From positions 1,946-65,945 of the forward strand of contig CAYQEE010000003.1 in NCBI GenBank assembly GCA_964416445.1: 64,000 bases of DNA, given 5' to 3'. Shown here one piece after another: positions 827-62,244 of this stretch. The position numbers and the translations under genes are program-made. Numbering within the stretch: position 1 is the stretch's first letter; every line of letters begins with the position of its first letter. This DNA comes from an uncultured Gammaproteobacteria bacterium (lineage in GTDB: Bacteria; Patescibacteriota; Microgenomatia; Levybacterales; UBA12049). The notes under the pieces are model-generated. The model did no database searches and was not told where the DNA came from. It saw only the letters and a list, made by a program, of their open reading frames with translations.

Positions 827-896
827 AAAGCATAAGCATGAACAGGTTTTAAAAGACTACTTGATTTTATTTACATTTTCTTATAATCTGTAATGT

Positions 897-35006: not shown

Positions 35007-35873
35007 TTATTGTGACCTTCCTAATAAGCCTCGTAAAAAGCTATTGAAAAAAATCAAAACAGAATTTCCTAGATCAGAAGATGATTGACTGTTTGTGACT
35101 GGAGAATTTGTAACCGCTGGGCACCATCCTCCGGGAGGTAACGGCAATTTACATGCTGGATTTTGGCTTAAACAAGTAGGTCGAGGAAGACAATGTGGAG
35201 GTGTTGGATACGCGCTAGGAGTTCCAGATGGTTCGCAAGAAGAAGGCAATCTACATAATATTCCAAGTCTTGGGTTGCAACTGGGAACGGGTGGACAAGA
35301 TGGATTTGGATAGCCAGAAGGAATACCTGAAGGAACAGGAGGCGTTCCACTTGGGCAGACTAATACAGTTTTGCATGGTTGACAATTCGTACTTCCTGGA
35401 TAACAAATTGCCTGTTGAGTTATGCCACAGAGATGTTCATAGAAGCAACCTTGAGGTGGAGTTGGATATGGAACAGAAGGCGTAGGTGATGTTGGCAGAC
35501 ACCACCCTCCATTTGGTTCAGGAATAAGACATCGAGGTGTAGCATCGAGGCAAGGTGGGCGTGGAATACAAGTTAAAGAAGGTACTGGAGAAGGATATGG
35601 AATTGATGGTGCAGGATAACACATTGCACCTGGAGGACAATGCCAGTTTGCAGAGTTTGTGGTATTCGTTGAGATAGGAGAACCATAGGTTGATCCTGTA
35701 AAATAGGAAACGCCTTCAACTTGTTGATCGTTTTGTTGAGTAGGTAAAACTGCATTATTTGCATATATTGCAAGAGGAAGTGCAAAAATAATTATTACAA
35801 GAATACCTACTTTTGTAGATATTTTTTTAGAGAGAAGATCTTTTGAATTTTTTACCTTCACTTTCCTTTTCAT
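35007..35873 (-). CDS. Secreted Cys- and Pro-rich repeat protein with a C-terminal tail resembling the shared tail domain
   Basis: Signal anchor; the repeats CIPRPPCLDATPRCLIPEPNGGWC and CLPRPTCLSQNPACKLPLPPGGWC; C-terminus NSVLIFFNSFLRGLLGRSQ, compared with NAIRNFFVSLIQGSY in the 23767..25275 protein. Confidence 0.45.
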   Translation of the reverse strand: MKRKVKVKNSKDLLSKKISTKVGILVIIIFALPLAIYANNAVLPTQQNDQQVEGVSYFTGSTYGSPISTNTTNSANWHCPPGAMCYPAPSIPYPSPVPSLTCIPRPPCLDATPRCLIPEPNGGWCLPTSPTPSVPYPTPPQGCFYEHLCGITQQAICYPGSTNCQPCKTVLVCPSGTPPVPSGIPSGYPNPSCPPVPSCNPRLGILCRLPSSCEPSGTPSAYPTPPHCLPRPTCLSQNPACKLPLPPGGWCPAVTNSPVTNSQSSSDLGNSVLIFFNSFLRGLLGRSQ

Positions 35874-35957: not shown

Positions 35958-37448
35958 TTGACGGAAATTGGACACTATTATATTCTGAGTTTACTAGTGA
36001 AAAAAAGGCAACATACACGTAAAAAAAAGACACGTAAAAAATTACATAACTTACGTTTTTGGATGATTTTCCTTCTGGGTGTAATTTTTATTATTTCTAT
36101 CGTTTTGTATAAACAGTTTTTATTAAGGTCTAACAAAATTTTAGGAGTGTCAAGTAGCTGTCCTACTAATCAACCAGAATGTTTGTTTTTAAGCCCCTAC
36201 CCTATTTTCGATTCATCAACATATATTCAATATAATGCGGCTGTAAATGGAGTAAATTGGAATCATACAACTACTGCTCAAGCGAATCGAGTATTAATAG
36301 TAACTGTTTCTTATGGTAATAATCAACAATCTTCTAATCAAGTTACCTATGGTGGAACTAATTTAAAGAAATTATCTTCACAGATGTGTTCTGCAATATC
36401 AGGATCAACGTGTAACGATGAAATGTGGTATCTTATCAATCCATCAACTGGTACTTTTCCCGTAGCTCTTTCAATTAATGGAGGACCAGCTGAAATTGTC
36501 GCAGCAGCATCAACATATTATAATGTTGATCAAACTAATCCGGTTGGATCTATTCTCGATTCCTCAGGGAAATCCAGCACGGCATTTGTTACAGTTAGTG
36601 GTACGACTCCGTATCAACTTATTGTTGATGCATTTGCTGCTGGTGGGATTGGAGGACCCTATTTACCTGATTCAAGCCAAACTCAGATATATGAGGCGAA
36701 TACCTATAATGCAGGGGGAGGAAGTTTTAAATTTGCAAACGCGAATAATACTACGATGCTCTGGTCTATTAACTCGTCTCAAGGGGGAGATAACTGGGCA
36801 CTTATCGCAGTTTCCCTTAATGTTCCGAGTGCTGAATTACCGCTTGCAATTACCTATGCACCCACTCCTACAAATAGCAATAACGTAGTTCAGCAACCAG
36901 TCAATTTGCAAACATCTCCTTCAACATTAACGCAATCACCTACTTCAGGACAGATTCGCACACAATCTCAGATACCAACACTGATACAAGTACCTATATT
37001 ACTGAATCAAACATCTCCGTTGAATCAAGTTCAGACACAAACATCACAAGGTAATGGAATAGTTAATCCTACTCAAACGGTTAGTAATCAAGGTACGTCT
37101 TTGCAGACGAGTGATGTCTCAATATCTCCAATAAGTGTTCCAGGAGCGCATAATAGTATTTCTCAAACAGTTTCTCCTACAACGGCAATCAATTTTTTGT
37201 CTCAATCTAATCCAACTACGTCACTACTTCCTACCCAGAGTCAAAATCAAAATAGTTCGGCTAAAAGTAATTTACTTTATCATGAAGCTGCTTATGTGCC
37301 TTTTGGCATTGATCTTAATTTTGCGCAACCTAATCATCAACATTCACCGTCCATAACGGTAAGCTCAGTAGTTGTAGTAATTAATAATAGTATTAAATCG
37401 ATTTTCTTGAATATTTTTAACAATATAAGAAAAATTATCAATAGATAA
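35958..37448 (+). CDS. Secreted protein: signal-anchor, globular domain, long S/T/Q/P linker, and the conserved C-terminal tail domain
   Basis: Basic N-terminus plus a TM. The C-terminus SNLLYHEAAYVPFGIDLNFAQ...VVVVINNSIKSIFLNIFNNIRKIINR aligns with the C-terminus of the 23767..25275 protein (LLY[QH]EA[TA]Y.P...NFA...INN[AS]I...F...KIIN[KR]). Confidence 0.45.
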   Translation: MTEIGHYYILSLLVKKRQHTRKKKTRKKLHNLRFWMIFLLGVIFIISIVLYKQFLLRSNKILGVSSSCPTNQPECLFLSPYPIFDSSTYIQYNAAVNGVNWNHTTTAQANRVLIVTVSYGNNQQSSNQVTYGGTNLKKLSSQMCSAISGSTCNDEMWYLINPSTGTFPVALSINGGPAEIVAAASTYYNVDQTNPVGSILDSSGKSSTAFVTVSGTTPYQLIVDAFAAGGIGGPYLPDSSQTQIYEANTYNAGGGSFKFANANNTTMLWSINSSQGGDNWALIAVSLNVPSAELPLAITYAPTPTNSNNVVQQPVNLQTSPSTLTQSPTSGQIRTQSQIPTLIQVPILLNQTSPLNQVQTQTSQGNGIVNPTQTVSNQGTSLQTSDVSISPISVPGAHNSISQTVSPTTAINFLSQSNPTTSLLPTQSQNQNSSAKSNLLYHEAAYVPFGIDLNFAQPNHQHSPSITVSSVVVVINNSIKSIFLNIFNNIRKIINR

Positions 37449-38802: not shown

Positions 38803-40185
38803 ATGCAGTATAGTAGAAAAAGAAACACAAAAAATTTTACGCATATGATTGGCAGGTACAGAAAAACATTGTCGTTTATAACGATACTTCTTATTGCGTT
38901 AGCAATACCAGTAACAATACTTCTGCAACAACAAAGAGCTACAATAGAGCAAAAAGCAGCGGGACCAATGTGTAACTCAACTGGAGTAACAAAAAACACA
39001 AACGGAACATATACGTTTGCGCGTCTTGCAATTGATTCTCAAGGAAATATAGTCGATGCGAATAATCCAACTTGCATTATCCAGCTTTTAGGAGTGAATA
39101 TGGGTCCATTATTTCTTCAGGACGCAGGAGGGACAACTAATCTCACTGGCCTTGAGCAATATATGCAGTTTTTCTCACAGAATTTGCATAGCAACGTGGT
39201 ACGGGTGAATTTTAACTCGTACTGGTATAATACCGATGTCCGGGTGCCAAAAGCGCAGATGAATTTTCAACAATGGCTGCAAACGTACGTAAAACTGGAA
39301 GAACAAGCAGGACATTATGTTATCTTGGATGTAGGCACACAATTTCAAAATCCACCATGCGGGAATGATCCGACAACCAATCCGCCAACCAATGTCACCC
39401 AATGTCCTTATCAAAATCAGGCGTCAAGAAATGTTCCTCCTAACCCAACAGAACAAACAACCTATGAACCCGTTCCTCTTCAGGCAATCGGGAGTTTAGC
39501 AAAACTGTATGCCAATGATCCTGCTGTTATTTTTGATATATGGAATGAGCCATCGCATAGTACAGCTCCCATTTCCGAACAGATATTTATGCAGGATACA
39601 AATGACAGAATTAATGCCGTGAGAACATATGCTCCACAGATGCTGGTGATGGTCTATGAAAGAGCACTCACAGATATTATGACTAATGGATTTGCTGATT
39701 TTACGCAAGGGAATATCATTATTGACTTTCATACCTATGGAGCAAACTGGACAAGAACAACGGATGTACCAATCGTTCAAACAGCTCACACACATAAATA
39801 TGCAGTTATTGAAGGAGAATGGGGAGCAAAAGCTCCAGGAACTCCTCCGCCTTCAGAAATGATTCCATTCTTACAAACCAATGATGTGGAATCAACGTAC
39901 TTCTCAGCAGGGGACCTAATCACAGGAAACACTCAAAACGCGGGAAGTCTGAACTCGGTTGGACAGGCAGTCGCTGCTGGGTACCTAAATATTTTTGGAG
40001 CACCCCAACCTACGAGTAATACTAATCCTTCCAATACTCCGACTCCATCACTCTCAGTCTCAATAACACTACATCCTTCCAATAGTATTTCACCTACTGC
40101 AACAATAACAAAACCCGGAGATCATCATCCTACGGAAGTTCAAAACAAAGATAACCACCATTCTGGTGGAGAAGAAAAAAAATAA
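38803..40185 (+). CDS. Secreted glycoside hydrolase family 5-like protein (cellulase/mannanase superfamily) with a C-terminal S/T/P tail
   Basis: Signal anchor (the likely start is the Met near 38845). The acid/base motif is FDIWNEPSH and the nucleophile region VIEGEWGAKA. The N-terminal module is paralogous to the N-terminus of the 42625..45645 protein. Confidence 0.6.
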   Translation: MQYSRKRNTKNFTHMIGRYRKTLSFITILLIALAIPVTILLQQQRATIEQKAAGPMCNSTGVTKNTNGTYTFARLAIDSQGNIVDANNPTCIIQLLGVNMGPLFLQDAGGTTNLTGLEQYMQFFSQNLHSNVVRVNFNSYWYNTDVRVPKAQMNFQQWLQTYVKLEEQAGHYVILDVGTQFQNPPCGNDPTTNPPTNVTQCPYQNQASRNVPPNPTEQTTYEPVPLQAIGSLAKLYANDPAVIFDIWNEPSHSTAPISEQIFMQDTNDRINAVRTYAPQMLVMVYERALTDIMTNGFADFTQGNIIIDFHTYGANWTRTTDVPIVQTAHTHKYAVIEGEWGAKAPGTPPPSEMIPFLQTNDVESTYFSAGDLITGNTQNAGSLNSVGQAVAAGYLNIFGAPQPTSNTNPSNTPTPSLSVSITLHPSNSISPTATITKPGDHHPTEVQNKDNHHSGGEEKK

Positions 40186-42624: not shown

Positions 42625-45600
42625 GTGTTTATAAAAAAATACTTTTTTCTTTTTGCAATTGCTTTTGTAGCAATAGCAATTCCCTTAACGACACTGGTTG
42701 TTCAGCATCAACAAATCATTAATCAAAACGCTGCAGGAAATAACTGCAACCATACAGGGGTAACCAAGAATGGGAACACCTACTCATTTGCAAAACTGCT
42801 TGTGGATTCGCAGGGCATACTTCGAGATACCTCCGGATGTCAAATTTATTTGCTTGGTGGACAAGGAAAAGGACCATCACCAACTTTACAGGGTCAATTG
42901 CAAGTAAATAATCCCAGCCAGTTTACTTACCTTCCACAGTGGAATAAATTGGTAAAAATGAATCTACTGCGCATTGTTCTTACAGTACAAAATTGGACGA
43001 GTAATCCAACAATGCCAGGTATTGGACCTGGAGGAGCGAGTGAATCATATCAATGGTTTGTGCAAAATTATGTTCATTATATTGAGCAACAAGGACAATA
43101 TGTAGAACTCGACCTATATCAACAAGGAAATGCACAAGCGGAACTGCAAGCATTACCTTCAATTTTACAAGCATTCCAAGGAGATACAGCAGTGTTCTAT
43201 GACGTCCGCAATGAAGCGTATCCTAATGGTGACTCCTGTACCCAAGGCATGAATGAGGACTTTTCTTTTCTCAAAAAGATCCAGGATTTCGATCCAACCA
43301 TACTGAAAGTAACCTATGTCAATTGCGTTGATCAAATGATTGCAGACCCAAAGACCTATCCTTTTTATACTGCAAGTAGTAGTGCCATTACCAATCTATT
43401 AATGGATGGACATATGTATAGTGGGTATGTCGGTCCAGATCCCTATCATCCAAAGTTAACATGCAATGAACCAGGCAATCCCAATGATAAACAGGGGGGA
43501 TGGCCTGCAGGCTTGCAAAAAGATGCAACAGTAACTGTACCATTTTTTCATGCCAATCATGCGGGGTTTATGCATGGAGAATGGGGAGGCTGTTATGACT
43601 ATACCAATTGGCAAGGGTATGATTATCACGATAGCATGATGCAATCCACTGTCTGTTTGAATATAGCTGGACTCAGTTACTATTTTCCATCAGGGTTGTT
43701 TACTAATCAGCAACTCAATCAAAATGGTATTAATGTGAATACTAGTTATACCGCTATTTTTAATAATGCTCTTTCCTGCAACGGTGGTAAACCAAGTGTG
43801 ACCTCTTCAAGTTCTCCACCACCGACAACTACGCCTAAACCAACTGTTTCCATATCACCTACCCCACAAGCATCATGTAATCATACTGGTGTAACAAAAA
43901 ATCAAGGAGGAAAATATACATTTGCCAAGTTATATGTTGATACTCATGGTATTTTAAGAGATGGTACTAATTGTGAAATATATTTATTGGGAGTACAAGG
44001 TAAAGGAGCAAATCCGTATAATAGCGGGCAATATACTCTTCATGATCCAAGTGAATTCTCTTATCTCGATCAAATAACACAACATCTTACTATGAATGAA
44101 CTTCGAGTTCCCATAACAGTTACAAATTGGAATGCAAATCCTTTTATGAGTAATATTAATGCGTATTACCATACGTTTATACAAGAATACGTGACCTATA
44201 TTGAACAGCAAGGAGATTACATACAATTTGATATCTATCAAGATGCAACTCCAAAAGAGGGTGAGACAGCAATAGCATCCCTTGCTAAAACCTTTCAAAC
44301 AGACCCTGCAGTATTTTATGATGTCCGTAATGAATCGCTACAACAAGGTGAAAGTTGTACTCAAGGTCTTAATGAAAATTATCAATGGTTAGAAGCTATA
44401 CAAAACGTAGATCCAACAATTCTTAAGGGAGTGTATGTTAATTGTCTTCAGGAAATGATAGCAAGTCCATCTCTTTATCCTTTTTATACAGCATCTAGTA
44501 GCGCCATAACAAATTTGTTTTTAGATGGTCATATATATAGTGGCTACAAAGGATCTAATCCTTTTCATCCAAATAGAACTTGTAATGAACCAAATGATCC
44601 ATACGGAAAAGACGGAGGTTGGCCGGCATTATTACAAAGAGATAAATCAGTAAGTGTCCCTTTTCTTCAGAAAAATCATGCAGCACTCGTTCACAATGAG
44701 TGGGGTGGATGTTTTGATTATACTAACTGGCAACCTACTGGTGTACCGGGACAACCTACTCCTCCGCCAGCTCCAGATTATCATGATATGATGATTCAAA
44801 GTGTTTTCGATAATAATCTCGCAGGATTAAGTTATTTTTATTATGATGATTTGTTTCTTAATAACCAACTCAATCAGAATGGTATAAATGTTACTAATGG
44901 ATATACCAAAATATTCTCTCTCGTTCCTTTATCTGGTACACCGATTCCAACAGATACGCCTCTACCCACTAGTACAGTATCACCCACACCTACCGTAACA
45001 CCAACAGGGGTAAGTGGTACTCCAACACCTACTCCACGGACTAATGGAACAAACGTGTTCGTAACGGTAGGGTTACATGGGATAGGGAATGGGGGTGATA
45101 ATGAGAATCCCCAAAGTAAGGGGACGATGAATCCACAACATCCGGTAAGAGATGTATTGATAACGTTTGTTAGTTTGCAAGGTACTATTGCAGCTACCGG
45201 GACAGGACAGATAACGTTTGATAGCGCCAGTGATAGTGCCCAGGGATTATTTACAGGTATCGTAACACTTGCAACGTCACTAAACGGTGATTATCTTATA
45301 CGGATTAAATCAAATGGATTTTTAGAGAGACAATTGAGTAGCGTGGTGTCATTGAGCCAGCCTCGTATGCAGCAAAAACCTGTTATTATTCCACCAGTAT
45401 ACCTCGTCAGTGGAGATTTAAATAATGATAACAAGTTAGATTTGCTAGATTATAATATTCTCGTAGGATGTTATGGAGTAAAACAAAATGATCCAGCGTC
45501 CTGTCCTGCACAATTTCAGACCACACCATCACAAGTGGGAGCTGATTTGTTAGATGATGGAATACAACCAGGAGACGAGAGCGCTGTTGACGGAGCAGAT

Positions 45601-45645
45601 TATAATTTATTCGTACGGGAATTAAGTATTCAAAATGGTGAATAA
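42625..45645 (+). CDS. Large secreted protein with two tandem GH5-like catalytic modules, P/T linkers and a C-terminal type-I dockerin-like domain
   Basis: Module 1 has VFYDVRNEAYP and HGEWGGCYDYTNW; module 2 has VFYDVRNESLQ and HNEWGGCFDYTNW. The N-terminal sub-modules NCNHTGVTKNGNTYSFAKLLVD and SCNHTGVTKNQGGKYTFAKLYVD repeat. The PT-rich linkers include TPTPTVTPTGVSGTPTPTP. The C-terminus carries two dockerin Ca-binding repeats (DLNNDNKLDLLDYNIL, then VDGADYNLFV). Confidence 0.6.
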   Translation: MFIKKYFFLFAIAFVAIAIPLTTLVVQHQQIINQNAAGNNCNHTGVTKNGNTYSFAKLLVDSQGILRDTSGCQIYLLGGQGKGPSPTLQGQLQVNNPSQFTYLPQWNKLVKMNLLRIVLTVQNWTSNPTMPGIGPGGASESYQWFVQNYVHYIEQQGQYVELDLYQQGNAQAELQALPSILQAFQGDTAVFYDVRNEAYPNGDSCTQGMNEDFSFLKKIQDFDPTILKVTYVNCVDQMIADPKTYPFYTASSSAITNLLMDGHMYSGYVGPDPYHPKLTCNEPGNPNDKQGGWPAGLQKDATVTVPFFHANHAGFMHGEWGGCYDYTNWQGYDYHDSMMQSTVCLNIAGLSYYFPSGLFTNQQLNQNGINVNTSYTAIFNNALSCNGGKPSVTSSSSPPPTTTPKPTVSISPTPQASCNHTGVTKNQGGKYTFAKLYVDTHGILRDGTNCEIYLLGVQGKGANPYNSGQYTLHDPSEFSYLDQITQHLTMNELRVPITVTNWNANPFMSNINAYYHTFIQEYVTYIEQQGDYIQFDIYQDATPKEGETAIASLAKTFQTDPAVFYDVRNESLQQGESCTQGLNENYQWLEAIQNVDPTILKGVYVNCLQEMIASPSLYPFYTASSSAITNLFLDGHIYSGYKGSNPFHPNRTCNEPNDPYGKDGGWPALLQRDKSVSVPFLQKNHAALVHNEWGGCFDYTNWQPTGVPGQPTPPPAPDYHDMMIQSVFDNNLAGLSYFYYDDLFLNNQLNQNGINVTNGYTKIFSLVPLSGTPIPTDTPLPTSTVSPTPTVTPTGVSGTPTPTPRTNGTNVFVTVGLHGIGNGGDNENPQSKGTMNPQHPVRDVLITFVSLQGTIAATGTGQITFDSASDSAQGLFTGIVTLATSLNGDYLIRIKSNGFLERQLSSVVSLSQPRMQQKPVIIPPVYLVSGDLNNDNKLDLLDYNILVGCYGVKQNDPASCPAQFQTTPSQVGADLLDDGIQPGDESAVDGADYNLFVRELSIQNGE

Positions 45646-48020: not shown

Positions 48021-49001
48021 TTATTTGGCGTTTAGCCATTCTGCAACTTGCGGTGCAAAGTACGTTATAATAATGTCTGCCCCTGCTCGTTTCATTGCTA
48101 TTAACATTTCTAAAACAATTTTTTTCTCATCAATCCATCCATTTTGAGCTGCAGCTTTGACCATGGCATATTCCCCACTTACATTATAAACGGCTAAAGG
48201 CAAGTCAAAACGTTGTGATACTCGATAAACAACATCTAAATAGGAAAGAGCAGGTTTTACCATAATAATGTCAGCACCTTCTTGAATATCAAGTTCTATC
48301 TCTCTCAATGCTTCTTTAGCATTCGCAGGATCCATTTGATACGTTTTTCTATCTCCAAATTGAGGTGCAGAACCTGCTGCTTCACGAAATGGTCCATAAA
48401 AACTTGACGCATATTTTGCCGAGTAAGCCATAATTGGTATTTCAGAAAAGTGGTTCTTATCGAGAATTTTACGTATTGCTCCAATTCTTCCATCCATCAT
48501 ATCTGAAGGTGCAACCATGTCAGCTCCTGCTTCGACATGTGACAATGCCATGCGAGAAAGTAATTCAAGTGACGGATCATTATTAATAGTATTGTTTTTT
48601 ACCACCCCGCAATGTCCATGATCAGTATATTCACAAAGGCAAATGTCCGTTATGATAATAATTTCGGGGGCTTTCGATTTTATTTCTCTAATTGCTTCCT
48701 GAACTACTCCGTTCTTATTATATGCCTCAGAGCCAACAGGATCTTTTTTGTTAGGTATACCAAATAACAATACTGCTGGAATTCCGAGATTTGCGACTCT
48801 TTTTGCTTGTTCGCCAATCTGTTTAATTGGCCATTGCATAATGCCAGGCATCGCGTCTATCTTTTGAGGTTTAGTGATTCCTTCGTGGATAAAAAAAGGA
48901 TAAACTAACTGGTCGATTCGTAGTGTTGTTTCTCGTACTAATCCTCGAAATTTATCATTATGACGAGTTCTCCGAAGCCTCGTAACAGGAAAATAAGTCA
49001 T
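48021..49001 (-). CDS. hemB: Porphobilinogen synthase (delta-aminolevulinate dehydratase), Zn-dependent
   Basis: The Cys-rich zinc site DICLCEYTDHGHCG, plus the active-site Lys regions. Confidence 0.85.
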   Translation of the reverse strand: MTYFPVTRLRRTRHNDKFRGLVRETTLRIDQLVYPFFIHEGITKPQKIDAMPGIMQWPIKQIGEQAKRVANLGIPAVLLFGIPNKKDPVGSEAYNKNGVVQEAIREIKSKAPEIIIITDICLCEYTDHGHCGVVKNNTINNDPSLELLSRMALSHVEAGADMVAPSDMMDGRIGAIRKILDKNHFSEIPIMAYSAKYASSFYGPFREAAGSAPQFGDRKTYQMDPANAKEALREIELDIQEGADIIMVKPALSYLDVVYRVSQRFDLPLAVYNVSGEYAMVKAAAQNGWIDEKKIVLEMLIAMKRAGADIIITYFAPQVAEWLNAK

Positions 49002-49049
49002 GTAAAGTTATAATATATATTACATGAAAGCCTACTAAAAAAAAAGTAA

Positions 49050-49991
49050 CTAAATAATTTGTTTTTTTACTACTTCAGCAAGAGCTTTTATAAATAATGG
49101 TGAAGTATTGAGTGACTGTGTTCGTATAAAAGATAAACCATGATCTTCAGCTTGTTTTCTTGCTGCAATTTCTACATCATATAGAATTTCAAGATGATCT
49201 GCTAAAAATTGCACAGGAGCAATAACAACGTATCTAAATCCTTCTTGTTTTAATTGCGGCATTATGTCAGCAAAATCTGGTTTTAGCCATTCTTCCGGTG
49301 TATGTCCTGCACTTTGGTAACAAAATTTCCATTGTTCTGCAGGCAGTTTCAGTATTTTCGCTACTTTTGAAGCAGTTTCTTGTAAGCTTATTATATACTC
49401 TGGTTCGTTTTGTACCACTCGCTTAGGCATACTATGTGCAGAAAAGACAATCGGTACTTTTTTTTGGATTTTTTTTGGAAATTGAGATAAGGCTTGCTGT
49501 ACTTTCTGGGCTAATGCCTGAAGGAATAAGGGTTCATCATACCAATTCTCAGCAATAGTAAGGAGGGGTTGTTTTTTTTCTGGTAACTCTGTTACTGCTT
49601 TTTTAAGTGCCAGTTGATAACCCTGCATAATAATAGGTGAATATTGTGGTGACATGATAATACCAATTAGTTGATTACTATCTAACGCAATCTCGGATAA
49701 TACATGAGAAATAAAAGGCTCAGAAAAACGCATTCCCGCACTAACTTGAAAAACAATATTTTCTTTAAATTGTAGACTAAGTTCTTGTTGAAGTGCAGCT
49801 GCCTGTTCCTGAGTTATGTGGACGAGTGGAGATCCACCTATCAGCGAATATCTTCTTTGAAATTCAATAATAGTATCTGGTTTTGCCTCTTTACCGCCAT
49901 AAATATTCCTTAAATATCTTGGAATTTCTTCTAATGATTTTGGAGAACCATAGGTCATTAAAATTACCCCTATTCTCTTTTTTGATTGCAT
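49050..49991 (-). CDS. cpfC: Ferrochelatase family; likely coproporphyrin ferrochelatase given chdC nearby
   Basis: IGVILMTYGSP..., with His/Glu active-site blocks; 313 aa. Confidence 0.75.
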   Translation of the reverse strand: MQSKKRIGVILMTYGSPKSLEEIPRYLRNIYGGKEAKPDTIIEFQRRYSLIGGSPLVHITQEQAAALQQELSLQFKENIVFQVSAGMRFSEPFISHVLSEIALDSNQLIGIIMSPQYSPIIMQGYQLALKKAVTELPEKKQPLLTIAENWYDEPLFLQALAQKVQQALSQFPKKIQKKVPIVFSAHSMPKRVVQNEPEYIISLQETASKVAKILKLPAEQWKFCYQSAGHTPEEWLKPDFADIMPQLKQEGFRYVVIAPVQFLADHLEILYDVEIAARKQAEDHGLSFIRTQSLNTSPLFIKALAEVVKKQII

Positions 49992-50086
49992 AATAAAAAC
50001 ATTAAGAGTATATCAAATATTTTTTACTAATTTCGAGCTTTAAGTTTTATATAAACTATAGTAGTATAGCTTCCAGAAGATAAGGC

Positions 50087-51019
50087 ATGCATAAAATGAA
50101 AAAGATAGTAATTGGTACGCGAGGCAGCAAACTTGCTCTTATACAATCCGAAATAATAAAAAATCAACTTCTCGCCATTCAACCATCACTTTTGGTAGAA
50201 ATAATGGTTATCACGACAAAAGGAGATACCAATATGAATCCAATCCCACTGGATAGTATGGGAAAAGACTGGTTTACTAAAGAAATTGATAACAAACTAT
50301 TAAATGATTCGATAGATATTGCCGTACATAGTATTAAAGATATTTCTGAAAACATATCTGATAAGCTTTTTATAGCTGCAGTCTCACAACGTGAAGATGC
50401 CCGAGAAGCATTAATTTCAAATAAAGGTCTTTCTTTTGATCAACTTCCTAAAGGATCAATTATAGGAACAGATAGTTCGAGGCGGAAAGCTCAAATATTA
50501 TATAAAAGACCTGACTTAATAGTTCTTCCTATAAGAGGCAATATTCCTACAAGAATTGCAAAACTAGAATCTCAGCATTACGACGCTTTAGTTTTGGCAG
50601 TAGCAGGGTTAAAACGATTGGGAATTGACGATAAAATTACACAATATTTTCCTATTACTGAAATTATCCCCTCTCCTGGCCAAGGAGCACTTGGAATTAT
50701 GATGAAAAAAAATAATACTAAACTATTATCATTAATAAGAAAATTAAATCATAAATCGAGTGAATTATGCATAGAAGCTGAACGGGCTTGTGCTCAAGAA
50801 ATGGGTGGAGGGTGTAAGATGCCTGTTGGGGTGTATGCTGAGCTAAAAGAAAATACATTACATTTGTTAGGAGTAGTGGGTTCATTGGATGGAAAACATA
50901 TTGTAACTGCTACCGTGAATGGTGAATTTTCAAAACCTGCTATTGTAGGTAAACTTTTAGCACAACAGCTTTTGAAATTGAGCGTAAGTTGGTACCAAAA
51001 ATCTGGAGAATTATTATGA
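50087..51019 (+). CDS. hemC: Hydroxymethylbilane synthase (porphobilinogen deaminase)
   Basis: IGTRGSKLALIQS..., with the dipyrromethane cofactor Cys region CAQEMGGGCKMPVG. Confidence 0.85.
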   Translation: MHKMKKIVIGTRGSKLALIQSEIIKNQLLAIQPSLLVEIMVITTKGDTNMNPIPLDSMGKDWFTKEIDNKLLNDSIDIAVHSIKDISENISDKLFIAAVSQREDAREALISNKGLSFDQLPKGSIIGTDSSRRKAQILYKRPDLIVLPIRGNIPTRIAKLESQHYDALVLAVAGLKRLGIDDKITQYFPITEIIPSPGQGALGIMMKKNNTKLLSLIRKLNHKSSELCIEAERACAQEMGGGCKMPVGVYAELKENTLHLLGVVGSLDGKHIVTATVNGEFSKPAIVGKLLAQQLLKLSVSWYQKSGELL

Positions 51020-51792
51020 TTTATGTACGAACAGGGCAATATATTGTTAAGACGAACGAACGATCTGAAATGAAAGGATTGCAAACGAAACTTTCATCAT
51101 TAGGACTGCACGTTTTCAGTTATCCTTGTATTTCGATTAGACAAAATTTAACGAAAGAATCCTTTTGGAATTGTTTAGGTGATATACGAACCTATGATAT
51201 TATTATTTTTACGAGCAAGAATAGTGTACGCTACCTATTTAAATATTTAGCCACAAGAAATGTTTCGCCAGAATCTCTAGAAAAAAAGACTATTTTTACC
51301 ATTGGCCTTGAAACAGCTCAAATCTTGCAACGGTTCAAACTTAATGTTACTCTTATTCCTCAAAAATTTACTTTTACTAATCTTCTTGACGAATTACCTA
51401 CAATTGAGGGAAAGAAAATATTGCTACCATTATCAACCCGTGCGGATTTTAGTAAAAAGGATTTACTTCAAAAAAAGGGTGCCCAAGTTACGGTAATTCC
51501 TCTTTATAAAACGGAACTGGTGTCCAAAAAGTCAGAACTATTCGAAAAACTAGTTGAAAATAATAGTATTTGTTGTGTAATATTTACAAGTCCATCAACA
51601 ATAGATGGTTTTATAAAACGTACTAAATCTGCAAATCTATTGAAAAAAATAAAGAAAATACCTATTTTTTGTATAGGACCGGTTACGGCAAAAGTTGCAA
51701 AACTATATAATTTTTCCCATATTTATCTTTCAGAGGTGCATACCTTTAATGGTATAATCAATACTATAAAGAATAACATTAAAATTATATGA
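51016..51792 (+). CDS. hemD: Uroporphyrinogen-III synthase
   Basis: HemD-like two-lobed fold motifs (IFTSKNSV, ILLPLSTRAD...IFTSPSTIDGF). ATGA-coupled to hemC; the start is taken at the internal ATG at 51016. Confidence 0.6.
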   Translation: MIYVRTGQYIVKTNERSEMKGLQTKLSSLGLHVFSYPCISIRQNLTKESFWNCLGDIRTYDIIIFTSKNSVRYLFKYLATRNVSPESLEKKTIFTIGLETAQILQRFKLNVTLIPQKFTFTNLLDELPTIEGKKILLPLSTRADFSKKDLLQKKGAQVTVIPLYKTELVSKKSELFEKLVENNSICCVIFTSPSTIDGFIKRTKSANLLKKIKKIPIFCIGPVTAKVAKLYNFSHIYLSEVHTFNGIINTIKNNIKII

Positions 51793-52442
51793 AATATCAC
51801 AATTATATTTTTATGCAAACTAGTGCTTCTTTTTTAGAGCTTTCTCCTCTGCAACGTAAAAAATTGAGAAAAGTTTTAAAAGAACAATTAGACCAAGATA
51901 GTAACGTAGTTATTAACACTTTTGCGACATTAGGATTAAAGAAAGATACCCAATGCTTATTGTGGATACAATCGGAGAAAATTGAAAACATTCAAGATTT
52001 TTTAAATACTATGCTACATTCTTCATTAGGTAGATATGTAACTATTTCTTATACATTATTTGGAATTGTTCATTCATCTCAATATGCTTCACAATCCAGT
52101 GCTCAAAATGAAACAAATTGGAAAGGTGCAAAGTATTTAATCATATATCCATTTACAAAAACGCACGAATGGTACCAATTAGATTTCGCAACAAGAAAGG
52201 AATTAATGCGGGGACATATAACCATTGGTAAGAAATTTCCTCAAATTTCCCAGCTCCTTCTCTATTCCTATGGTGTGGATGATCAGGAGTTTATTGTTTC
52301 TTATGAGACAGAAGATCTCACTGATTTTCAGAGATTAGTAATTGCTCTCCGTGCAGATAAAGTACGAGAGTATACTAAAAATGATACACCAATTTTTACT
52401 TGTATACATAAATCTTTAGATGAATTTGTTACGTTTTTATGA
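51789..52442 (+). CDS. chdC: Chlorite dismutase-family coproheme decarboxylase (HemQ/ChdC)
   Basis: C-terminal ferredoxin-like domain blocks YLIIYPFTKTHEWYQL...RGHITIGKKF...YSYGVDDQEFIVSYETEDL...LVIALRADKVREYT characteristic of HemQ; ATGA-coupled into the hem operon. Confidence 0.65.
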   Translation: MKYHNYIFMQTSASFLELSPLQRKKLRKVLKEQLDQDSNVVINTFATLGLKKDTQCLLWIQSEKIENIQDFLNTMLHSSLGRYVTISYTLFGIVHSSQYASQSSAQNETNWKGAKYLIIYPFTKTHEWYQLDFATRKELMRGHITIGKKFPQISQLLLYSYGVDDQEFIVSYETEDLTDFQRLVIALRADKVREYTKNDTPIFTCIHKSLDEFVTFL

Positions 52443-53461
52443 ATAAAACCTTTATTGAGGCTTGTTTTGGAAATAAAACATTATATACACCAGTTTGGTA
52501 TATGCGACAGGCTGGTAGATACTTACCAGAGTATAGGAAATTAAAAGAAAAGTATAAAATATTAGAAATATGCCAAACACCTGAACTCGCTGTGAAAGTG
52601 GCTTTACAACCAGTTGATATTCTTCATGTTGATGCAGCAATTTTGTTTGCGGATATTATGATTCCTCTTCTAGGAATAGACGTTAGATTAGATATAGTAG
52701 AATCAATTGGGCCAGTGATTCAGGATCCAATTCAATCTCTTTCAGATGTCAAACAGCTTCGAGACCTTCATCCCAAAGAGGACATTCCCTATTTACTCGA
52801 AACAATTAAAATTCTTCGTAACGAGTTAAAAAATAAAGTACCATTAATTGGATTTTCAGCTGCTCCGTTTACCTTAGCAAGTTATCTTATTGAAGGAAAA
52901 CCTACCAGAGACTTTATAAGAACAAAATCATTTATGTATAACAATAGTAAAGCGTGGCATTTGTTAATGAAGAAACTGAGTGAGATGATTATTGTCTATT
53001 TAAATGCTCAGATAGACGCTGGCGCTCAGGCATTACAGTTATTTGATAGTTGGGTAGGATGTTTAAGCGAGAGCGATTATAGTGAATATGTACTTCCCTA
53101 CTCAGCCGAAATATTTGCAAAGGTTTATCAACCGCATATTCCACTAATTCATTTTGGAACAAATACCTACGGCTTACTAAAACAGTTTTCTTCAGTTCAA
53201 TGTCATGTCATTAGTATTGATTGGAGAATTTCGATTGCTAAAGCATGGAAAGAGATTGCTTATAAAAAGGCGGTACAAGGGAATTTAGATCCAGTACTCT
53301 TGTTAAGCGACTTTAGTTTAATAAAAAAGCGAGTAGATGCACTTTATGTAGATTTACCAAGAAAGGATGGATATATTTTTAATTTAGGACATGGTGTTCT
53401 ACCGACTACTCCTGTTGAAAATATGATTAGACTTACTGAGTATATACATGAACATAGATAA
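52439..53461 (+). CDS. hemE: Uroporphyrinogen decarboxylase
   Basis: N-terminal PVWYMRQAGRYLPEY signature of UroD. Confidence 0.85.
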   Translation: MNKTFIEACFGNKTLYTPVWYMRQAGRYLPEYRKLKEKYKILEICQTPELAVKVALQPVDILHVDAAILFADIMIPLLGIDVRLDIVESIGPVIQDPIQSLSDVKQLRDLHPKEDIPYLLETIKILRNELKNKVPLIGFSAAPFTLASYLIEGKPTRDFIRTKSFMYNNSKAWHLLMKKLSEMIIVYLNAQIDAGAQALQLFDSWVGCLSESDYSEYVLPYSAEIFAKVYQPHIPLIHFGTNTYGLLKQFSSVQCHVISIDWRISIAKAWKEIAYKKAVQGNLDPVLLLSDFSLIKKRVDALYVDLPRKDGYIFNLGHGVLPTTPVENMIRLTEYIHEHR

Positions 53462-55954: not shown

Positions 55955-57415
55955 TTATGCAATTACATAATGCGATCCTAAACTTTTTTGTCGAGAATGT
56001 GCTGATTTTGCAATCAGAAAGGAAATGAGAACCATGTTAACTAATTCTCCCTGCTCTCTTGTTACATAAGGTACTTGTCGGAGTCTATTGAGTACAAAGG
56101 TAAGTTTTTCTATAACTTGTGCGAGATCACTTCTAGTACGTTCAATACCAACATTATTCCACATAAGTTCCTGAAGAACTTTTCGAGTAAAATTTTTATT
56201 TTCGTTAATAGTAAAAAATTGAAGGTTACTCGGTAGAGAAGGAATTTCTTGTGGAAGCTCTGAAATGCAATAAGCAATTTGACCTGAGAAGACAAATCCT
56301 TCAAGTAAAGAATTTGAGGCTAAACGATTAGCCCCATGGATTCCTGTTGCTGCAACTTCACCGTAGGCGAAGAGATTTTGAACAGAAGTTCTTCCATAGA
56401 GATCAGTTGCTATTCCACCGCAAATAAAATGAGCTGCAGGAGTAATTGGTATGAGGTTCGTTGTCAAATCATATCCTCGCTTAAGTAATTCACGATATAT
56501 ATTGGGAAATCGATTTCTAACGAAAGATTTGGGTTTATGTCGAAGATCTAAAAAAACTTTTCCCGTTCGTTGTTTATGAAAGACTGCTCGAGATACTATA
56601 TCTCTTGGTGCAAGATCACCGGAGGGATGAAAATCTTTCATAAATGCTTTTCCAGTACTATCTTTCAAAGTAGCTCCTTCTCCACGTAATGCCTCTGATA
56701 GTAAAAATAACGGTGAAGAAGAATCTTGTAAAGCCGTAGGATGGAATTGAATAAATTCGAGATCAGTTAGTTTTGCTTTGACTCTTGCTGCCATAGCAAT
56801 TCCATCTCCTGTTGCTACTTTGGGATTTGTGGTCCATGTGTATACTTGTCCTACTCCTCCAGTACATAGCATGGTTCCTCTTGCAGCAACTTTGATAATT
56901 TCATTATCCCTTAAAATGAAAGCACCAAAACATGCATTATCTTTTACATATAAATCTATTGTGAATGCATTTTCCCAAATCTCAACGTTTTTAGTTTGTA
57001 ATAAAGAATTTACTAGTTTTTCCTCTATTTCCTGACCGGTAAAATCAGATGCATGAAATATTCTAGGATATGAATGTGCTGCTTCATATGAAGTAGCAAA
57101 ATTGCCATTCTCTTTTTTATCAAAATTGACCCCATATTTTTGTAATTCTAAAATAGCTTTTTTCCCATTTCTAACTAAAAATGTAACGGACTCTTTTTTA
57201 TTATGATACTTTCCTGCTTCTAATGTATCCTGAATATGAGAATGAATAGAATCGTTTTTACCGAATACAGCTGCAATTCCTCCTTGAGCATAGGAAGTTG
57301 CAGAATCTGTTAACGATTGTTTTGTTACTAATAATACTTTTCCGAATTGAGCAAGCGTTAATGCACAGTGCAGGCCTGCAATTCCAGAACCAATAACGAG
57401 AAAATCTGTTTTCAT
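55955..57415 (-). CDS. nadB: L-aspartate oxidase
   Basis: FAD-binding DFLVIGSGIAGL..YAQGGIAA..DS...H..DTL.AG, plus an RxGG-like block typical of NadB/SdhA-family flavoproteins; divergent to nadA. Confidence 0.8.
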   Translation of the reverse strand: MKTDFLVIGSGIAGLHCALTLAQFGKVLLVTKQSLTDSATSYAQGGIAAVFGKNDSIHSHIQDTLEAGKYHNKKESVTFLVRNGKKAILELQKYGVNFDKKENGNFATSYEAAHSYPRIFHASDFTGQEIEEKLVNSLLQTKNVEIWENAFTIDLYVKDNACFGAFILRDNEIIKVAARGTMLCTGGVGQVYTWTTNPKVATGDGIAMAARVKAKLTDLEFIQFHPTALQDSSSPLFLLSEALRGEGATLKDSTGKAFMKDFHPSGDLAPRDIVSRAVFHKQRTGKVFLDLRHKPKSFVRNRFPNIYRELLKRGYDLTTNLIPITPAAHFICGGIATDLYGRTSVQNLFAYGEVAATGIHGANRLASNSLLEGFVFSGQIAYCISELPQEIPSLPSNLQFFTINENKNFTRKVLQELMWNNVGIERTRSDLAQVIEKLTFVLNRLRQVPYVTREQGELVNMVLISFLIAKSAHSRQKSLGSHYVIA

Positions 57416-57484
57416 AGAGATAATTAATGTCTTGTAATAAATTAGTGTATATTATACACTTAGATCATGCAATGAGGAGGTCTT

Positions 57485-58474
57485 ATGATACAACATAATA
57501 ATGTAAGCCCATCATTTTACGGCGAAAAAGAGGAAAATTTAGATACCATCAATAAAATTAAAGCATGGAAAAAAAAGAGGAATGCATTAATAATTGCACA
57601 TAATTATCAAATTCCTGATATTCAAGATATTGCAGATTTTGTGGGAGATTCTCTCGGACTTTCTCAAAAAGCTGCTGCAGCATCTGAAGAACTTATTATC
57701 TATTGTGGAGTACATTTTATGGCAGAAAGTGCTGCAATCTTTTCACCCGATAAAACAGTATTAATCCCTGATTTGAAAGCTGGATGTAGTTTAGCAGATT
57801 CGATAGATGCTGAAGAATTGCGAAAATGGAAAAGACGATATCCAAATGCCGTAGTTGTAAGTTATGTAAATACAACAGCAGAAGTTAAGGCAGAAAGTGA
57901 TTTTTGTTGCACTTCATCAAATGCTGTACGTGTCGTACAGTCAATTCCTGAAGATAAAGAAATTATCTTTGTGCCGGATATGTTTTTAGGTGATTATGTT
58001 GCACGTAAAACAGGCAGGAAAATATATGTTTATCCTGGTGAATGTCATGTGCATGCAAGGGCAAGCTCAAAAGATATCATAGCAAAATTAGGAAGACACC
58101 CTGCTGCAGAATTTTTAATTCACCCTGAATGCGGATGTGTATCTGAATGTATGCATTACGTAGCTACGAAAGAAATTCCCGAAGAGAAAACTCATATTCT
58201 TTCAACAGGAGGTATGCTTAATCACGTTAAAAAATCTGTTACGAATGAATATGTAGTTGCTACTGAAACAGGTATTATTCATCAATTACAAAAACAGAAT
58301 CCCCAAAAAAAATTCTTTCCTTTACGAGAAGATATGGTATGCAAGTATATGAAAATGATTACACTTGATAAGTTACTGAATAGTTTAATCAATCTTGAGT
58401 TTGAGGTAAAAGTTTCAAAAGAAATTGCATCGAAAGCACGAACTCCTATTGAACGAATGCTTGCACTTGGTTAA
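57485..58474 (+). CDS. nadA: Quinolinate synthase A
   Basis: ALIIAHNYQ...YCGVHFMAES..., with Cys ligands (CSLAD, ECHVH, PECGCV). Confidence 0.85.
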   Translation: MIQHNNVSPSFYGEKEENLDTINKIKAWKKKRNALIIAHNYQIPDIQDIADFVGDSLGLSQKAAAASEELIIYCGVHFMAESAAIFSPDKTVLIPDLKAGCSLADSIDAEELRKWKRRYPNAVVVSYVNTTAEVKAESDFCCTSSNAVRVVQSIPEDKEIIFVPDMFLGDYVARKTGRKIYVYPGECHVHARASSKDIIAKLGRHPAAEFLIHPECGCVSECMHYVATKEIPEEKTHILSTGGMLNHVKKSVTNEYVVATETGIIHQLQKQNPQKKFFPLREDMVCKYMKMITLDKLLNSLINLEFEVKVSKEIASKARTPIERMLALG

Positions 58475-58475
58475 T

Positions 58476-59432
58476 ATGACACGAGAAGAGATTATCCTTC
58501 ATTACTTTCAAAAAAAAAATATATTAAACACATCGAATCCGTTCTATCAAGTTCATATATCGGAATTATTTAAATGGATGGTAAATGGAGATGATATTAC
58601 TCATGATAAATCGTTACATAATTTGCATCTTCATGGAACAGGTGAAGCAGAAATTATTAGTAAACAAAAAGGATTAATAGCTGGAGTAGAAGAAATTGTA
58701 TATTTACTCTCCCAATTTACTCAGTTAACTATTATTCCAAAAATGCATGACGGAGATGAAGTTGTGCCAGGACAAAAAATCCTAATCATATCCGGTGGAT
58801 ATAATGAAATTATTGCTTATGAGCGTGTTATATTAAATATCCTTGGCAAAATGTCTGGGGTAGCTACTATGACAAACACACTCGTTTCACAGATTGGGAT
58901 CCAACCACCGTTTCTTGCTTCAACTCGTAAAACTCCTTTGATGTTTTTAGATAAAAAGGCAGTAGCAGTTGGTGGAGGAGTTACGCATAGGTTGAACCTT
59001 TCTGATTGGGCAATGATTAAAGATAATCATTTGAAAATATTGCAAAAAGAGACAAATCAAAGTCTGGATAAAGTTATATCGAATGCAATCATGCGAATGC
59101 TTGAAGCCAATGTACCGTTTTTTGAAATCGAGGTAGAATCTTCTGAAGAAGCTGTGTTAACAGCCAAAGCGTTTTTAGAGAAGAAATCAAACCGAAATAT
59201 AAAAACTTGTATAGCTATCCTTTTAGATAACTTTGAACCACTTTCTGCAAACAATGTTATCTTACAAATAAAGAATGTAACAAGAGAACCATTTCAAATA
59301 CTATTTGAAGTTTCGGGAGGTATTACATCAAAAAATCTTTTAGCATGGACAAAGACAGGCACTGATATAATTTCTTTAGGTGCATTAACCCATTCTTCTC
59401 CGACCCTTGATCTCTCTCTTTCGATTATATAA
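58476..59432 (+). CDS. nadC: Nicotinate-nucleotide pyrophosphorylase (quinolinate phosphoribosyltransferase)
   Basis: AMIKDNHL..., with an (alpha/beta) barrel C-terminus. The start is taken directly after the nadA stop; the longer ORF overlaps nadA by 50 nt. Confidence 0.7.
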   Translation: MTREEIILHYFQKKNILNTSNPFYQVHISELFKWMVNGDDITHDKSLHNLHLHGTGEAEIISKQKGLIAGVEEIVYLLSQFTQLTIIPKMHDGDEVVPGQKILIISGGYNEIIAYERVILNILGKMSGVATMTNTLVSQIGIQPPFLASTRKTPLMFLDKKAVAVGGGVTHRLNLSDWAMIKDNHLKILQKETNQSLDKVISNAIMRMLEANVPFFEIEVESSEEAVLTAKAFLEKKSNRNIKTCIAILLDNFEPLSANNVILQIKNVTREPFQILFEVSGGITSKNLLAWTKTGTDIISLGALTHSSPTLDLSLSII

Positions 59433-59485
59433 CAGTAAAAATTAAAATTAAAACGAAAGAGTGCATTGAGGATAAATTTCAGTGT

Positions 59486-61189: not shown

Positions 61190-62241
61190 GTAAAAAACTA
61201 GCGAACATAAGTCTTACTAATAATGAAAAACTCGCTATGATTAGTAATCTCTCAACACTGCTTACAGCGGGTATTCCCATTTTAGAAGCTGTGGAACTTA
61301 TGCTTGAAGATGCAAAAGGTAATCCTAAGCTAGTACTCCAATCACTTTATGAAAGCTTAGTACAAGGGAAGCATATTTATGCAGCTTTATCTGAATTTCC
61401 AAAAAGTTTTGATAAAGTAACAGTGAACCTTCTTAAAGCATCTGAGGAAGCTGGTACACTTGAAACGATTCTAAAAGATCTTAAAGATCAAATAAAAAAA
61501 CAGATGGAATTTAGCGATCGATTACGTTCTGCGTTGATCTATCCTATGTTTATAACTCTTGTTTTTTTTGGAGTTATGCTAATGATACTTATTGTTGTTA
61601 TTCCTAAAATTAATACTGTTTTTTCAAGGTTAAATGTCTCAATTCCAGTTCCAACAAAAATTCTTATTTTTCTATCAAGTATTTTACTTACCTATCCTGT
61701 CTTTGTTACTGCTGGAGCAATTATTTTTATAGGTAGTTGTATATGGATAATAAAAACACAAAAACAATTTATTTATCCAATGCTATTTTCACTTCCTTTA
61801 ATAAGTAACTTAATACAAGAAATAGATCTGACTCGATTTTCCCGAAATCTTTATTTACTCCTGTCTGCTGGGATTACTATTACCAACGCATTAGAGCTAA
61901 CAGAAGAAGTTGTGATGAGAAAAGATGTCGCAAAGGCTATTCGCTATGCAAAGGAAACGGTACTTAATGGAAAAAGCCTTTCTGACGCATTTAAACAAAG
62001 AAAAACAATTTTTACCGGAATTATGATTAAAATAATTGAGGCTGGTGAACGTACCGGTACCCTTGATAAATCAATGTTAGATATCTCAGAATATCTTGAT
62101 TATGAAGTTTCCAATACAGTAAAGACGCTTACTACCGTATTAGAACCAGTGATGTTAATTTTAGTCGGAGTACTTGTTGGAGGCATGATGATGTCTATTA
62201 TTGCTCCAATTTATAGCTTAATAGGCCAAGTAAGTCATTAA
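61186..62241 (+). CDS. pilC: Type IV pilus inner-membrane platform protein (PilC/GspF family)
   Basis: Duplicated GspF domain with 3 TM helices; 4-bp overlap with pilB. Confidence 0.8.
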   Translation: MSKKLANISLTNNEKLAMISNLSTLLTAGIPILEAVELMLEDAKGNPKLVLQSLYESLVQGKHIYAALSEFPKSFDKVTVNLLKASEEAGTLETILKDLKDQIKKQMEFSDRLRSALIYPMFITLVFFGVMLMILIVVIPKINTVFSRLNVSIPVPTKILIFLSSILLTYPVFVTAGAIIFIGSCIWIIKTQKQFIYPMLFSLPLISNLIQEIDLTRFSRNLYLLLSAGITITNALELTEEVVMRKDVAKAIRYAKETVLNGKSLSDAFKQRKTIFTGIMIKIIEAGERTGTLDKSMLDISEYLDYEVSNTVKTLTTVLEPVMLILVGVLVGGMMMSIIAPIYSLIGQVSH

Positions 62242-62244
62242 TCT

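Follow-up and report, generated by a model that had tools for sequence, protein, structure and literature searches.

A tandem GH5 enzyme from an uncultured bacterium carries an X-module–dockerin-like tail that belongs to a large, unnamed cassette family

What purpose does the tail of a secreted glycosidase serve, if it resembles a docking module and no docking partner is recognised beside it? The question is raised by a gene at 42625..45645 on the plus strand of a 64,000-nucleotide stretch of DNA (contig CAYQEE010000003.1 of assembly GCA_964416445.1, positions 1,946 to 65,945; hereafter the window), which was deposited as an uncultured Gammaproteobacteria bacterium and is placed by GTDB in the Patescibacteriota. 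An earlier sequence-only reading, made from the letters and their open reading frames (ORFs), described the product as a secreted protein with two tandem modules of glycoside hydrolase family 5 (GH5) and a C-terminal type-I dockerin. Dockerin-bearing GH5 enzymes are routine in cellulolytic clostridia, and a protein that joins GH5 to a dockerin is of an already known kind. What is new here is a tail of the X-module–dockerin (XDoc) type, the very large unnamed family to which that tail belongs and which is found on diverse enzymes, and the sparse, divergent lineage from which the GH5 modules come.

The protein does not end in a plain dockerin, as had first been described. The dockerin is instead the C-terminal half of a conserved two-domain cassette of ~180–200 aa that the sequence-only reading had not recognised. 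An X-module-like beta-sandwich (aa 805–925; 45037..45399, plus strand), delimited by family conservation, AlphaFold2 (AF2) modeling, and Foldseek, opens with the motif LHGIGNGGDNxNP and leads directly into a dockerin-like module (aa 926–1006; 45400..45642, plus strand), delimited by profile comparison with the PDB and by AF2. The latter module comprises a first loop (D931–D942), a Cys pair (C949/C960), a second loop (D974–D992), and two main helices. When aa 805–1006 were searched with HMMER against 1.84 billion cluster representatives (clusters at 50% identity), 1512 matched at E ≤ 1e-3, of which 897 also passed E ≤ 1e-10. Essentially every one of the 1512 spans the full ~180–200 aa, so that sandwich and dockerin are conserved together. 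Their consensus, LHGIGnGGDNvNP...HPxR...YlvKVKtdgFLxKqiPGI...LVtGDINNDNqLdILDYNiLisCfg...sC...gADinDDGxVdGxDYNLFLRELSVQxG, lays out a beta-sandwich and then two EF-hand-like loops with their helices, the conserved Cys pair lying between the loops. A word-indexed search with the same cassette returned zero matches, although HMMER gave 1512 representatives; negatives from such an index should not be relied on when a domain is short or has an odd composition. The whole unit is neither covered nor named by any Pfam or NCBIfam model, and our literature searches turned up no account of it.

Sequence profile and predicted fold agree on what the cassette resembles. When the whole protein was compared with PDB sequences, it gave a single, marginal match (E = 0.94), to the X-module and type-II dockerin of CipA. 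A profile built from 44 family members was far more discriminating: its five best PDB matches are XDoc dyads (2b59_B, 2.9e-7; 3kcp, 1.1e-6; 5g5d, 3e-6; 4u3s_B, 2.1e-5; 4wi0_B, 3.6e-5), with alignments that begin in the last X-module strands and extend across both dockerin repeats, whereas stand-alone type-I dockerins match the same profile more weakly (1e-3 to 5e-2). The AF2 model of the window cassette has a predicted local distance difference test score (pLDDT) of 91.8 and a predicted template modeling score (pTM) of 0.88, with beta-strands at model residues 6–127 and helices at 136–151 and 186–198. Foldseek places this model closest to type-II XDoc dyads, which account for all of its top 10 PDB matches and whose structures were determined with bound cohesins (E from 4e-5 to 4e-3 over ~190–200 columns, template modeling score up to 0.64, target-normalized), and below them the matches fall sharply to unrelated beta-sandwiches. 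At the level of single Pfam domains, Dockerin_1 (PF00404) matches 38 of the 44 members at E ≤ 0.01 (best 3.6e-10), and CarboxypepD_reg matches the beta-sandwich of 9 of the 44, weakly and below threshold. Judged by sequence and by model, the tail is thus an XDoc-like dyad, not a plain type-I dockerin. The proposal of a dockerin-related C-terminus therefore stands, while its type-I label is rejected: the window copy has no PF00404 match, and XDoc dyads are its best counterparts by both profile and fold.

It is useful to contrast the cassette with docking modules that are already understood. Nearest by profile and fold are the type-II XDoc dyads of scaffoldins (C. thermocellum CipA/CipB and A. 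cellulolyticus ScaA; 2b59, 3kcp, 4fl4, 5g5d, 5k39, 5m0y, 4u3s, 4wi0). As in these, an Ig-like beta-sandwich lies directly upstream of a two-repeat dockerin and is modeled as packed against it, and common to both are Y-x-(I/V)-K...(F/Y)-L strands, a first loop of the form GD(I/L)xxDNx(I/L)(N/D)(I/L)LD, and a Cys after helix 1. However, sequence identity is only 10–15%, and the cassette has its own LHGIGNGGDNxNP motif and its conserved Cys pair between the repeats. It is borne by enzymes rather than scaffoldins, in uncultured soil lineages rather than cellulolytic clostridia. The scaffoldin dyads pair with type-II cohesins on anchoring proteins, whereas no cognate cohesin is known for the cassette. 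An enzyme-borne parallel exists in A. cellulolyticus Xyn10, a GH10 glycoside hydrolase that carries a type-II XDoc dyad in place of a type-I dockerin and binds the type-II cohesins of cell-bound scaffoldins (PMC4217186). Xyn10 has demonstrated cohesin partners and is one exception among the 143 dockerin proteins of its genome (PMC4217186), whereas the XDoc-like cassette is the standard tag of a whole family. Type-I dockerins (PF00404; 1daq, 2mte, 4fl4_A) likewise have two EF-hand-like loops with a helix after each, but they stand alone without an X-module, and the window copy misses their Pfam model.

The proteins that carry the cassette are strikingly varied. In the top 150 family members it sits at the C-terminus of 131 proteins, at the N-terminus of 9, and internally in 4, and it forms a protein by itself in the other 6. 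Pfam analysis of 84 full-length carriers found 53 other families. This cargo includes GH5, GH16, GH18, GH28, GH39, alginate lyase, sulfatase, alpha-galactosidase, and phosphoesterase domains, together with VWA, CBM4_9, SdrD_B, Spherulin4, and PQQ propellers. A docking or anchoring module would be expected to show just such a distribution, one tag shared by a diverse secretome. Among the carriers, a 1295-aa sulfatase with the cassette is encoded at 10001..13888 of L009, a 52-kb contig; flanking genes there include several of the 23S_rRNA_IVP/bAvd family, a Fic protein, and an ATP-dependent DNA ligase. A 974-aa protein at locus L004 (5869..8793) has the cassette internally, with a GH5 module on one side and a PF04185 phosphoesterase domain (E = 1.9e-61) on the other, an unusual glycosidase–phosphoesterase fusion. 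Its cassette scores 20.3 bits against Dockerin_1, for which the cut-off is 22.9.

The catalytic part of the protein fared differently, in that most of what had been read from the letters held up. The reading frame has exactly the start, length, and coordinates first given for it in the ORF list: 1006 aa from a GTG start, the interval counting the stop codon. The motifs are in place (CNHTGVTKN at aa 41 and 418, RNE at 195 and 568, EWGG at 319 and 692), within two modules that are 53% identical (BLASTP E = 7e-139, far beyond chance). Module 1 (aa 39–388; 42739..43788, plus strand) is defined by PF00150, invariant columns, profile alignment to solved GH5 enzymes, and AF2/Foldseek; module 2 (aa 417–771; 43873..44937, plus strand) is defined by PF00150 and its identity to module 1. 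The whole protein matches PF00150 with E = 6.4e-13 (49.3 bits, in two stretches), and taken singly the modules score 29.1 and 28.8 bits, each above the curated cut-off of 23.5. The key residues are R116, N196-E197 (acid/base), H263-x-Y265, and E319 (nucleophile) in module 1, and R494, N569-E570, H636-x-Y638, and E692 in module 2. Indeed, the Arg (N-x-x-R), Asn-Glu, His-x-Tyr, and Glu-(W/Y)-Gly motifs are invariant in all eight aligned members of this lineage. The coding sequences of the two modules share 62% identity; synonymous divergence between them is saturated (dS ~2.2), and their dN/dS ratio is 0.17. Thus, the duplication is old and both copies have been under purifying selection.

Comparison with solved enzymes points the same way. 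When the lineage profile is aligned with GH5 endoglucanases (1egz at E = 2.4e-7, then 5ihs, 3nco, 1a3h, and others), the NEP, HxY, and nucleophile motifs coincide, although both window modules have Ala or Ser in place of the Pro (NEA/NES). An AF2 model built from a four-sequence alignment (pTM 0.71) shows an alternating strand/helix pattern, and Foldseek returned 27 PDB matches to it at E ≤ 1e-3, mostly GH5 and other clan GH-A enzymes. In PF00150 membership, the N-E, H-x-Y, and nucleophile E motifs, and the clan GH-A fold, the modules resemble GH5 endo-beta-glycanases such as Cel5 of Erwinia chrysanthemi (1egz), FnCel5A (3nco), and B. agaradhaerens Cel5A (1a3h), and the same likeness extends to mannanases (4fk9, 4y7e) and an endoglycoceramidase (5ccu). 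They differ from known GH5 enzymes in being very divergent (profile E of 2e-7 at best), in their N-E-(A/S) motif, in extra Cys-containing insertions, and in the apparent lack of a conserved beta3 His. Pfam, profile, and alignment alike support the assignment of both modules to GH5 in clan GH-A, with a predicted (beta/alpha)8 fold and an intact catalytic Glu pair in each; neither of the outcomes named beforehand as refuting, a placement outside GH5 or clan GH-A and a loss of the catalytic Glu positions, was observed. The best fold matches are of mixed specificity (endoglycoceramidase 5ccu, endoglucanase 4xzw, mannanases 4fk9, 4y7e, and 1qnp). With glucanase, mannanase, and endoglycoceramidase as the nearest solved relatives, we concur with the sequence-only reading that the substrate cannot be inferred from sequence.

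One element of that description did not survive. A repeated Cys-containing N-terminal submodule had been proposed ahead of each catalytic module. The segment in question, CNHTGVTKN...LLG, aligns as the start of the GH5 domain itself and is kept in eight of eight members. A separate Cys-rich module was rejected, the segment being modeled as short beta-strands that lead into the barrel. It would correspond to the N-terminal beta-hairpin and strand 1 of GH5, with two conserved Cys residues.

The remaining parts of the protein connect these modules to the outside of the cell and to one another. A hydropathy scan found a transmembrane-like segment from residue 1, and the N-terminal stretch (aa 1–37; 42625..42735, plus strand) consists of KK, a hydrophobic core of ~21 residues, and a Q-rich stretch ending in NAA|G. 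The core, the Q-rich stretch, and an A-x-(A/S)-G pattern recur at the N-termini of relatives. By its sequence this region looks like a Sec signal or a signal anchor, which would presumably be cleaved at NAA|G. Two further segments were read from the sequence: a P/T/S-rich linker between the catalytic modules (aa 389–416; 43789..43872, plus strand) and a P/T-rich linker before the cassette (aa 772–804; 44938..45036, plus strand). Both these linkers and the two Asp/Asn-rich repeats of the tail (D931–D942 and D974–D992) are present as initially described. Two Logan contigs encode an identical protein (P0001) amid the same neighboring genes.

Taken together, we read the protein as a Sec-exported enzyme with two retaining GH5 beta-glycanase modules, derived from an old and maintained duplication and joined by P/T linkers to an XDoc-like docking cassette, and we put the probability of this reading at roughly 70%. 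After export through Sec, the two modules would hydrolyze a beta-linked glycan in a double-displacement reaction that relies on E197/E319 and E570/E692. The P/T linkers would be flexible and give the modules reach, and the cassette would be stabilized by Ca2+ and probably also by a disulfide. By analogy with Xyn10, the cassette may dock the enzyme to a cohesin or cohesin-like receptor on a surface or scaffold protein encoded elsewhere in the genome, and this receptor may be common to the other cassette-bearing enzymes of the organism.

Several observations weigh against this reading. On the catalytic side, neither the classical strand-3 (beta3) His nor the strand-8 (beta8) Trp is evident in the eight-member lineage alignment. 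After the L-D of strand 3 there is no conserved His, D-L-Y, D-I-Y, or D-V-G standing there instead, and the AF2 model is weak at its C-terminus. The GH5 model is of modest quality overall (pLDDT 61), and its fold matches to characterized enzymes are only 12–16% identical, so that hydrolytic activity is a prediction. On the docking side, the window cassette fails Dockerin_1 and has a disrupted second Ca loop, and its binding may in consequence be weak or of another kind. A cohesin was found neither among the scanned proteins of the window nor beside the L004 gene (by Pfam on its neighbors) nor on L008–L010.

This last point bears on the best surviving alternative, in which the cassette would have no cohesin partner at all and would bind a cell-wall polymer, an S-layer, an extracellular polysaccharide, or the surface of another organism directly, without a scaffoldin. 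As the sequence-only reading had stated, no cohesin is detectable in the window: PF00963 matches nothing in the scanned set, which comprised predicted secreted proteins 150 aa or longer and not every ORF, although a divergent cohesin could escape Pfam. Nor was a cohesin found in the context of P0005, P0019, P0032, P0098, P0075, or P0020, most of whose contigs are too short to help, and no anchoring scaffoldin was found to pair with the cassette in the loci examined. A six-frame hmmsearch found only one cassette copy in the window. Direct adhesion accords with the absence of a cohesin from every locus examined and with the weak matches of the beta-sandwich to CarboxypepD_reg, fn3_3, and PEGA-like folds, which are often used in binding. 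It also has a precedent in the literature, since Patescibacteria have been noted to encode dockerin-domain proteins whose partner is unknown and which were suggested to target host glycans (PMC10633639). However, the nearest relatives of the cassette in both sequence and fold are all protein-binding XDoc dyads solved with cohesins, and the absence of a cohesin is weak evidence when only a small part of any genome has been searched. We therefore regard direct adhesion as unlikely, while giving it more weight than the other alternatives. If a cassette receptor of an unrecognized kind is encoded nearby, the only local candidates are three unannotated P/S/T-rich proteins with an N-terminal transmembrane segment and no Pfam, NCBIfam, or PDB match, at 23767..25275 (minus strand), 35007..35873 (minus strand), and 35958..37448 (plus strand). 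Two of the three are divergently transcribed, just upstream of a tRNA-Arg gene and of a second GH5 gene in the window.

A docking role would also fail if the window cassette were a decayed dockerin that binds nothing, the enzyme being secreted free or anchored in the membrane by its N-terminus. Its dockerin half is indeed peculiar. An EF-hand-like Ca loop was taken to be 12 residues with D or N at positions 1, 3, 5, 9, and 12, followed by a helix. Loop 1 is canonical in these terms (D931, N933, D935, D939, D942). Loop 2 keeps D974, D978, D989, and D992, has Leu at ligand position 3 (L976), and is interrupted by an 8-residue insertion, IQPGDESA (aa 980–987; 45562..45585, plus strand), recognized by family alignment and hmmsearch. 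The columns of this insertion are almost all gaps in the 150-member family alignment, and only P0038 has a comparable one. Of the two Ca-binding repeats originally claimed, the first looks intact in sequence and the second is degenerate; helices follow both loops in the AF2 model. Whether taken as a 202-aa or an 84-aa segment, the window copy has no match to Dockerin_1 at E ≤ 10, probably because of the insertion and the Leu in loop 2, and it is the only one of the 44 sampled members without any Pfam match. Its membership among dockerins is accordingly by transitive homology only, through its relatives, and its sequence suggests that the second Ca site is altered or lost. Against decay, the rest of the cassette is well conserved, being 46–51% identical to its best relatives and scoring 198 bits against the family hidden Markov model; all of the invariant Gly, Cys, and Asp residues are kept; and AF2 models the region confidently. 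Asymmetry in itself need not abolish binding, as asymmetric dockerins with a single binding mode, such as type-II and R. flavefaciens dockerins, are functional. Decay thus seems to us quite improbable, and the remodeled loop 2 would probably give the docking cassette an asymmetric interface with a single mode of binding.

The least credible alternative, to which we assign only a slight chance, is that the cassette serves as a C-terminal signal for secretion or sorting, similar to the C-terminal domain of the type IX secretion system (T9SS) or to sortase and exosortase signals, that is read by an export or attachment machinery: its predominantly C-terminal position (131 of 150 members) on a very diverse secretome, weak Por_Secre_tail matches in 6 of 44 members, and a sortase gene within the window would be in keeping with this, but a terminal signal could not tolerate the N-terminal (9), internal (4), and stand-alone (6) cassettes, the carriers already have N-terminal Sec-type signals, the Por_Secre_tail matches are below threshold and confined to the beta-sandwich, and inspection by eye, without a formal scan, showed no LPXTG-type motif in the tail. 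A T9SS-like sorting domain in particular was judged unlikely, the cassette being also internal and N-terminal.

If the XDoc-like docking cassette is what it appears to be, its significance extends beyond this one enzyme. The less routine part of the protein is its tail, which represents a very large, unnamed X-module–dockerin family that tags a broad secretome and for which no cohesin partner is known. We tentatively suggest that the cassette is the address tag of an enzyme-display system, widespread and as yet undescribed, among uncultured soil bacteria in the Patescibacteria/Chloroflexota neighborhood; this is a possibility that we rate well below the docking role of the enzyme itself. If true, more than 1000 secreted hydrolases, sulfatases, lyases, and adhesin-like proteins would dock to a receptor that current cohesin models miss, and cellulosome-like organization would have arisen or diversified outside the clostridia, the tandem GH5 enzyme being one cargo among others. 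The existence of such a receptor would be relevant in several ways. First, extracellular enzymes would be assembled or displayed by a cellulosome-type mechanism outside the classical lineages. Second, it would bear on how poorly known soil bacteria gain access to polymers or interact with other cells. Finally, protein engineers would gain new orthogonal docking pairs.

The GH5 modules have a history of their own, and it is a sparsely populated one. In a word-indexed database of 5.8 billion proteins, the full-length query retrieved nothing but itself, and module 1 as the query retrieved a single relative (P0004, 28% identical). Among 185,579 species genomes scanned, only three loci of the lineage came to light (L004, L006, and L005). 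Only seven relatives were found, including P0003, P0004, L004, L006, and two L005 genes. The extreme sparseness and divergence of the lineage make it a candidate new CAZy subfamily. It falls into two subgroups, both encoded in the window. Subgroup A, 38–57% identical, consists of module 1, module 2, and L004. Subgroup B, 34–68% identical and marked by a PPCGxD...C insertion, consists of a 460-aa window paralog, P0004, L006, and L005. L004 and L006 lie on the same contig of a soil metagenome-assembled genome (MAG) labeled "Patescibacteria group bacterium". At L006 (4909..5806), an ORF directly upstream of the GH5-XDoc gene contains HCDIPCGIYDP, which by eye resembles the Ni-binding hook of nickel superoxide dismutase; this ORF overlaps a second one. 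L005 belongs to a Ktedonobacteraceae MAG, and the lineage is therefore common to Chloroflexota and Patescibacteria-labeled genomes. Its two single-module genes (467..1756 and 2710..3972) are 68% identical, have one opposite-strand ORF between them, and both lack the cassette.

The subgroup B paralog in the window (38803..40185, plus strand) had been described as a single-module protein of 460 aa without the dockerin tail, and so it is: it scores 62.5 bits against PF00150 and has no cassette match. It has an N-terminal transmembrane segment or signal, and is 28–30% identical to modules 1 and 2 and 36–42% identical to P0004, L006, and L005. Where the cassette would be, its C-terminus (40033..40182) has a P/T/S-rich stretch and then a His- and charge-rich tail (KPGDHHPTEVQNKDNHHSGGEEKK).

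The rest of the window, which has a G+C content of ~34%, gives some idea of the cell that makes these enzymes. A sortase gene at 1388..1978 (minus strand; PF04203, E = 4.6e-21) implies covalent wall anchoring of surface proteins. Genes of para-aminobenzoate (pABA) synthesis adjoin the tandem GH5 gene. At 48021..53461 lies a heme cluster with HemB and HemH (both on the minus strand), HemC, HemD, a chlorite-dismutase-family (HemQ-like) protein, and HemE, which points to a coproporphyrin-dependent route and a fairly complete metabolism. NadB and NadA of de novo nicotinamide adenine dinucleotide (NAD) synthesis open the region 55955..62736 and are followed by a type-IV pilus ATPase (T2SSE). After the ATPase come a polytopic membrane protein, PilC-like by eye, and a pilin-like protein whose N-terminus bears a methylation motif. 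Sortase, heme, NAD, type-IV pilus, and pABA genes together are not the repertoire of a minimal epibiont.

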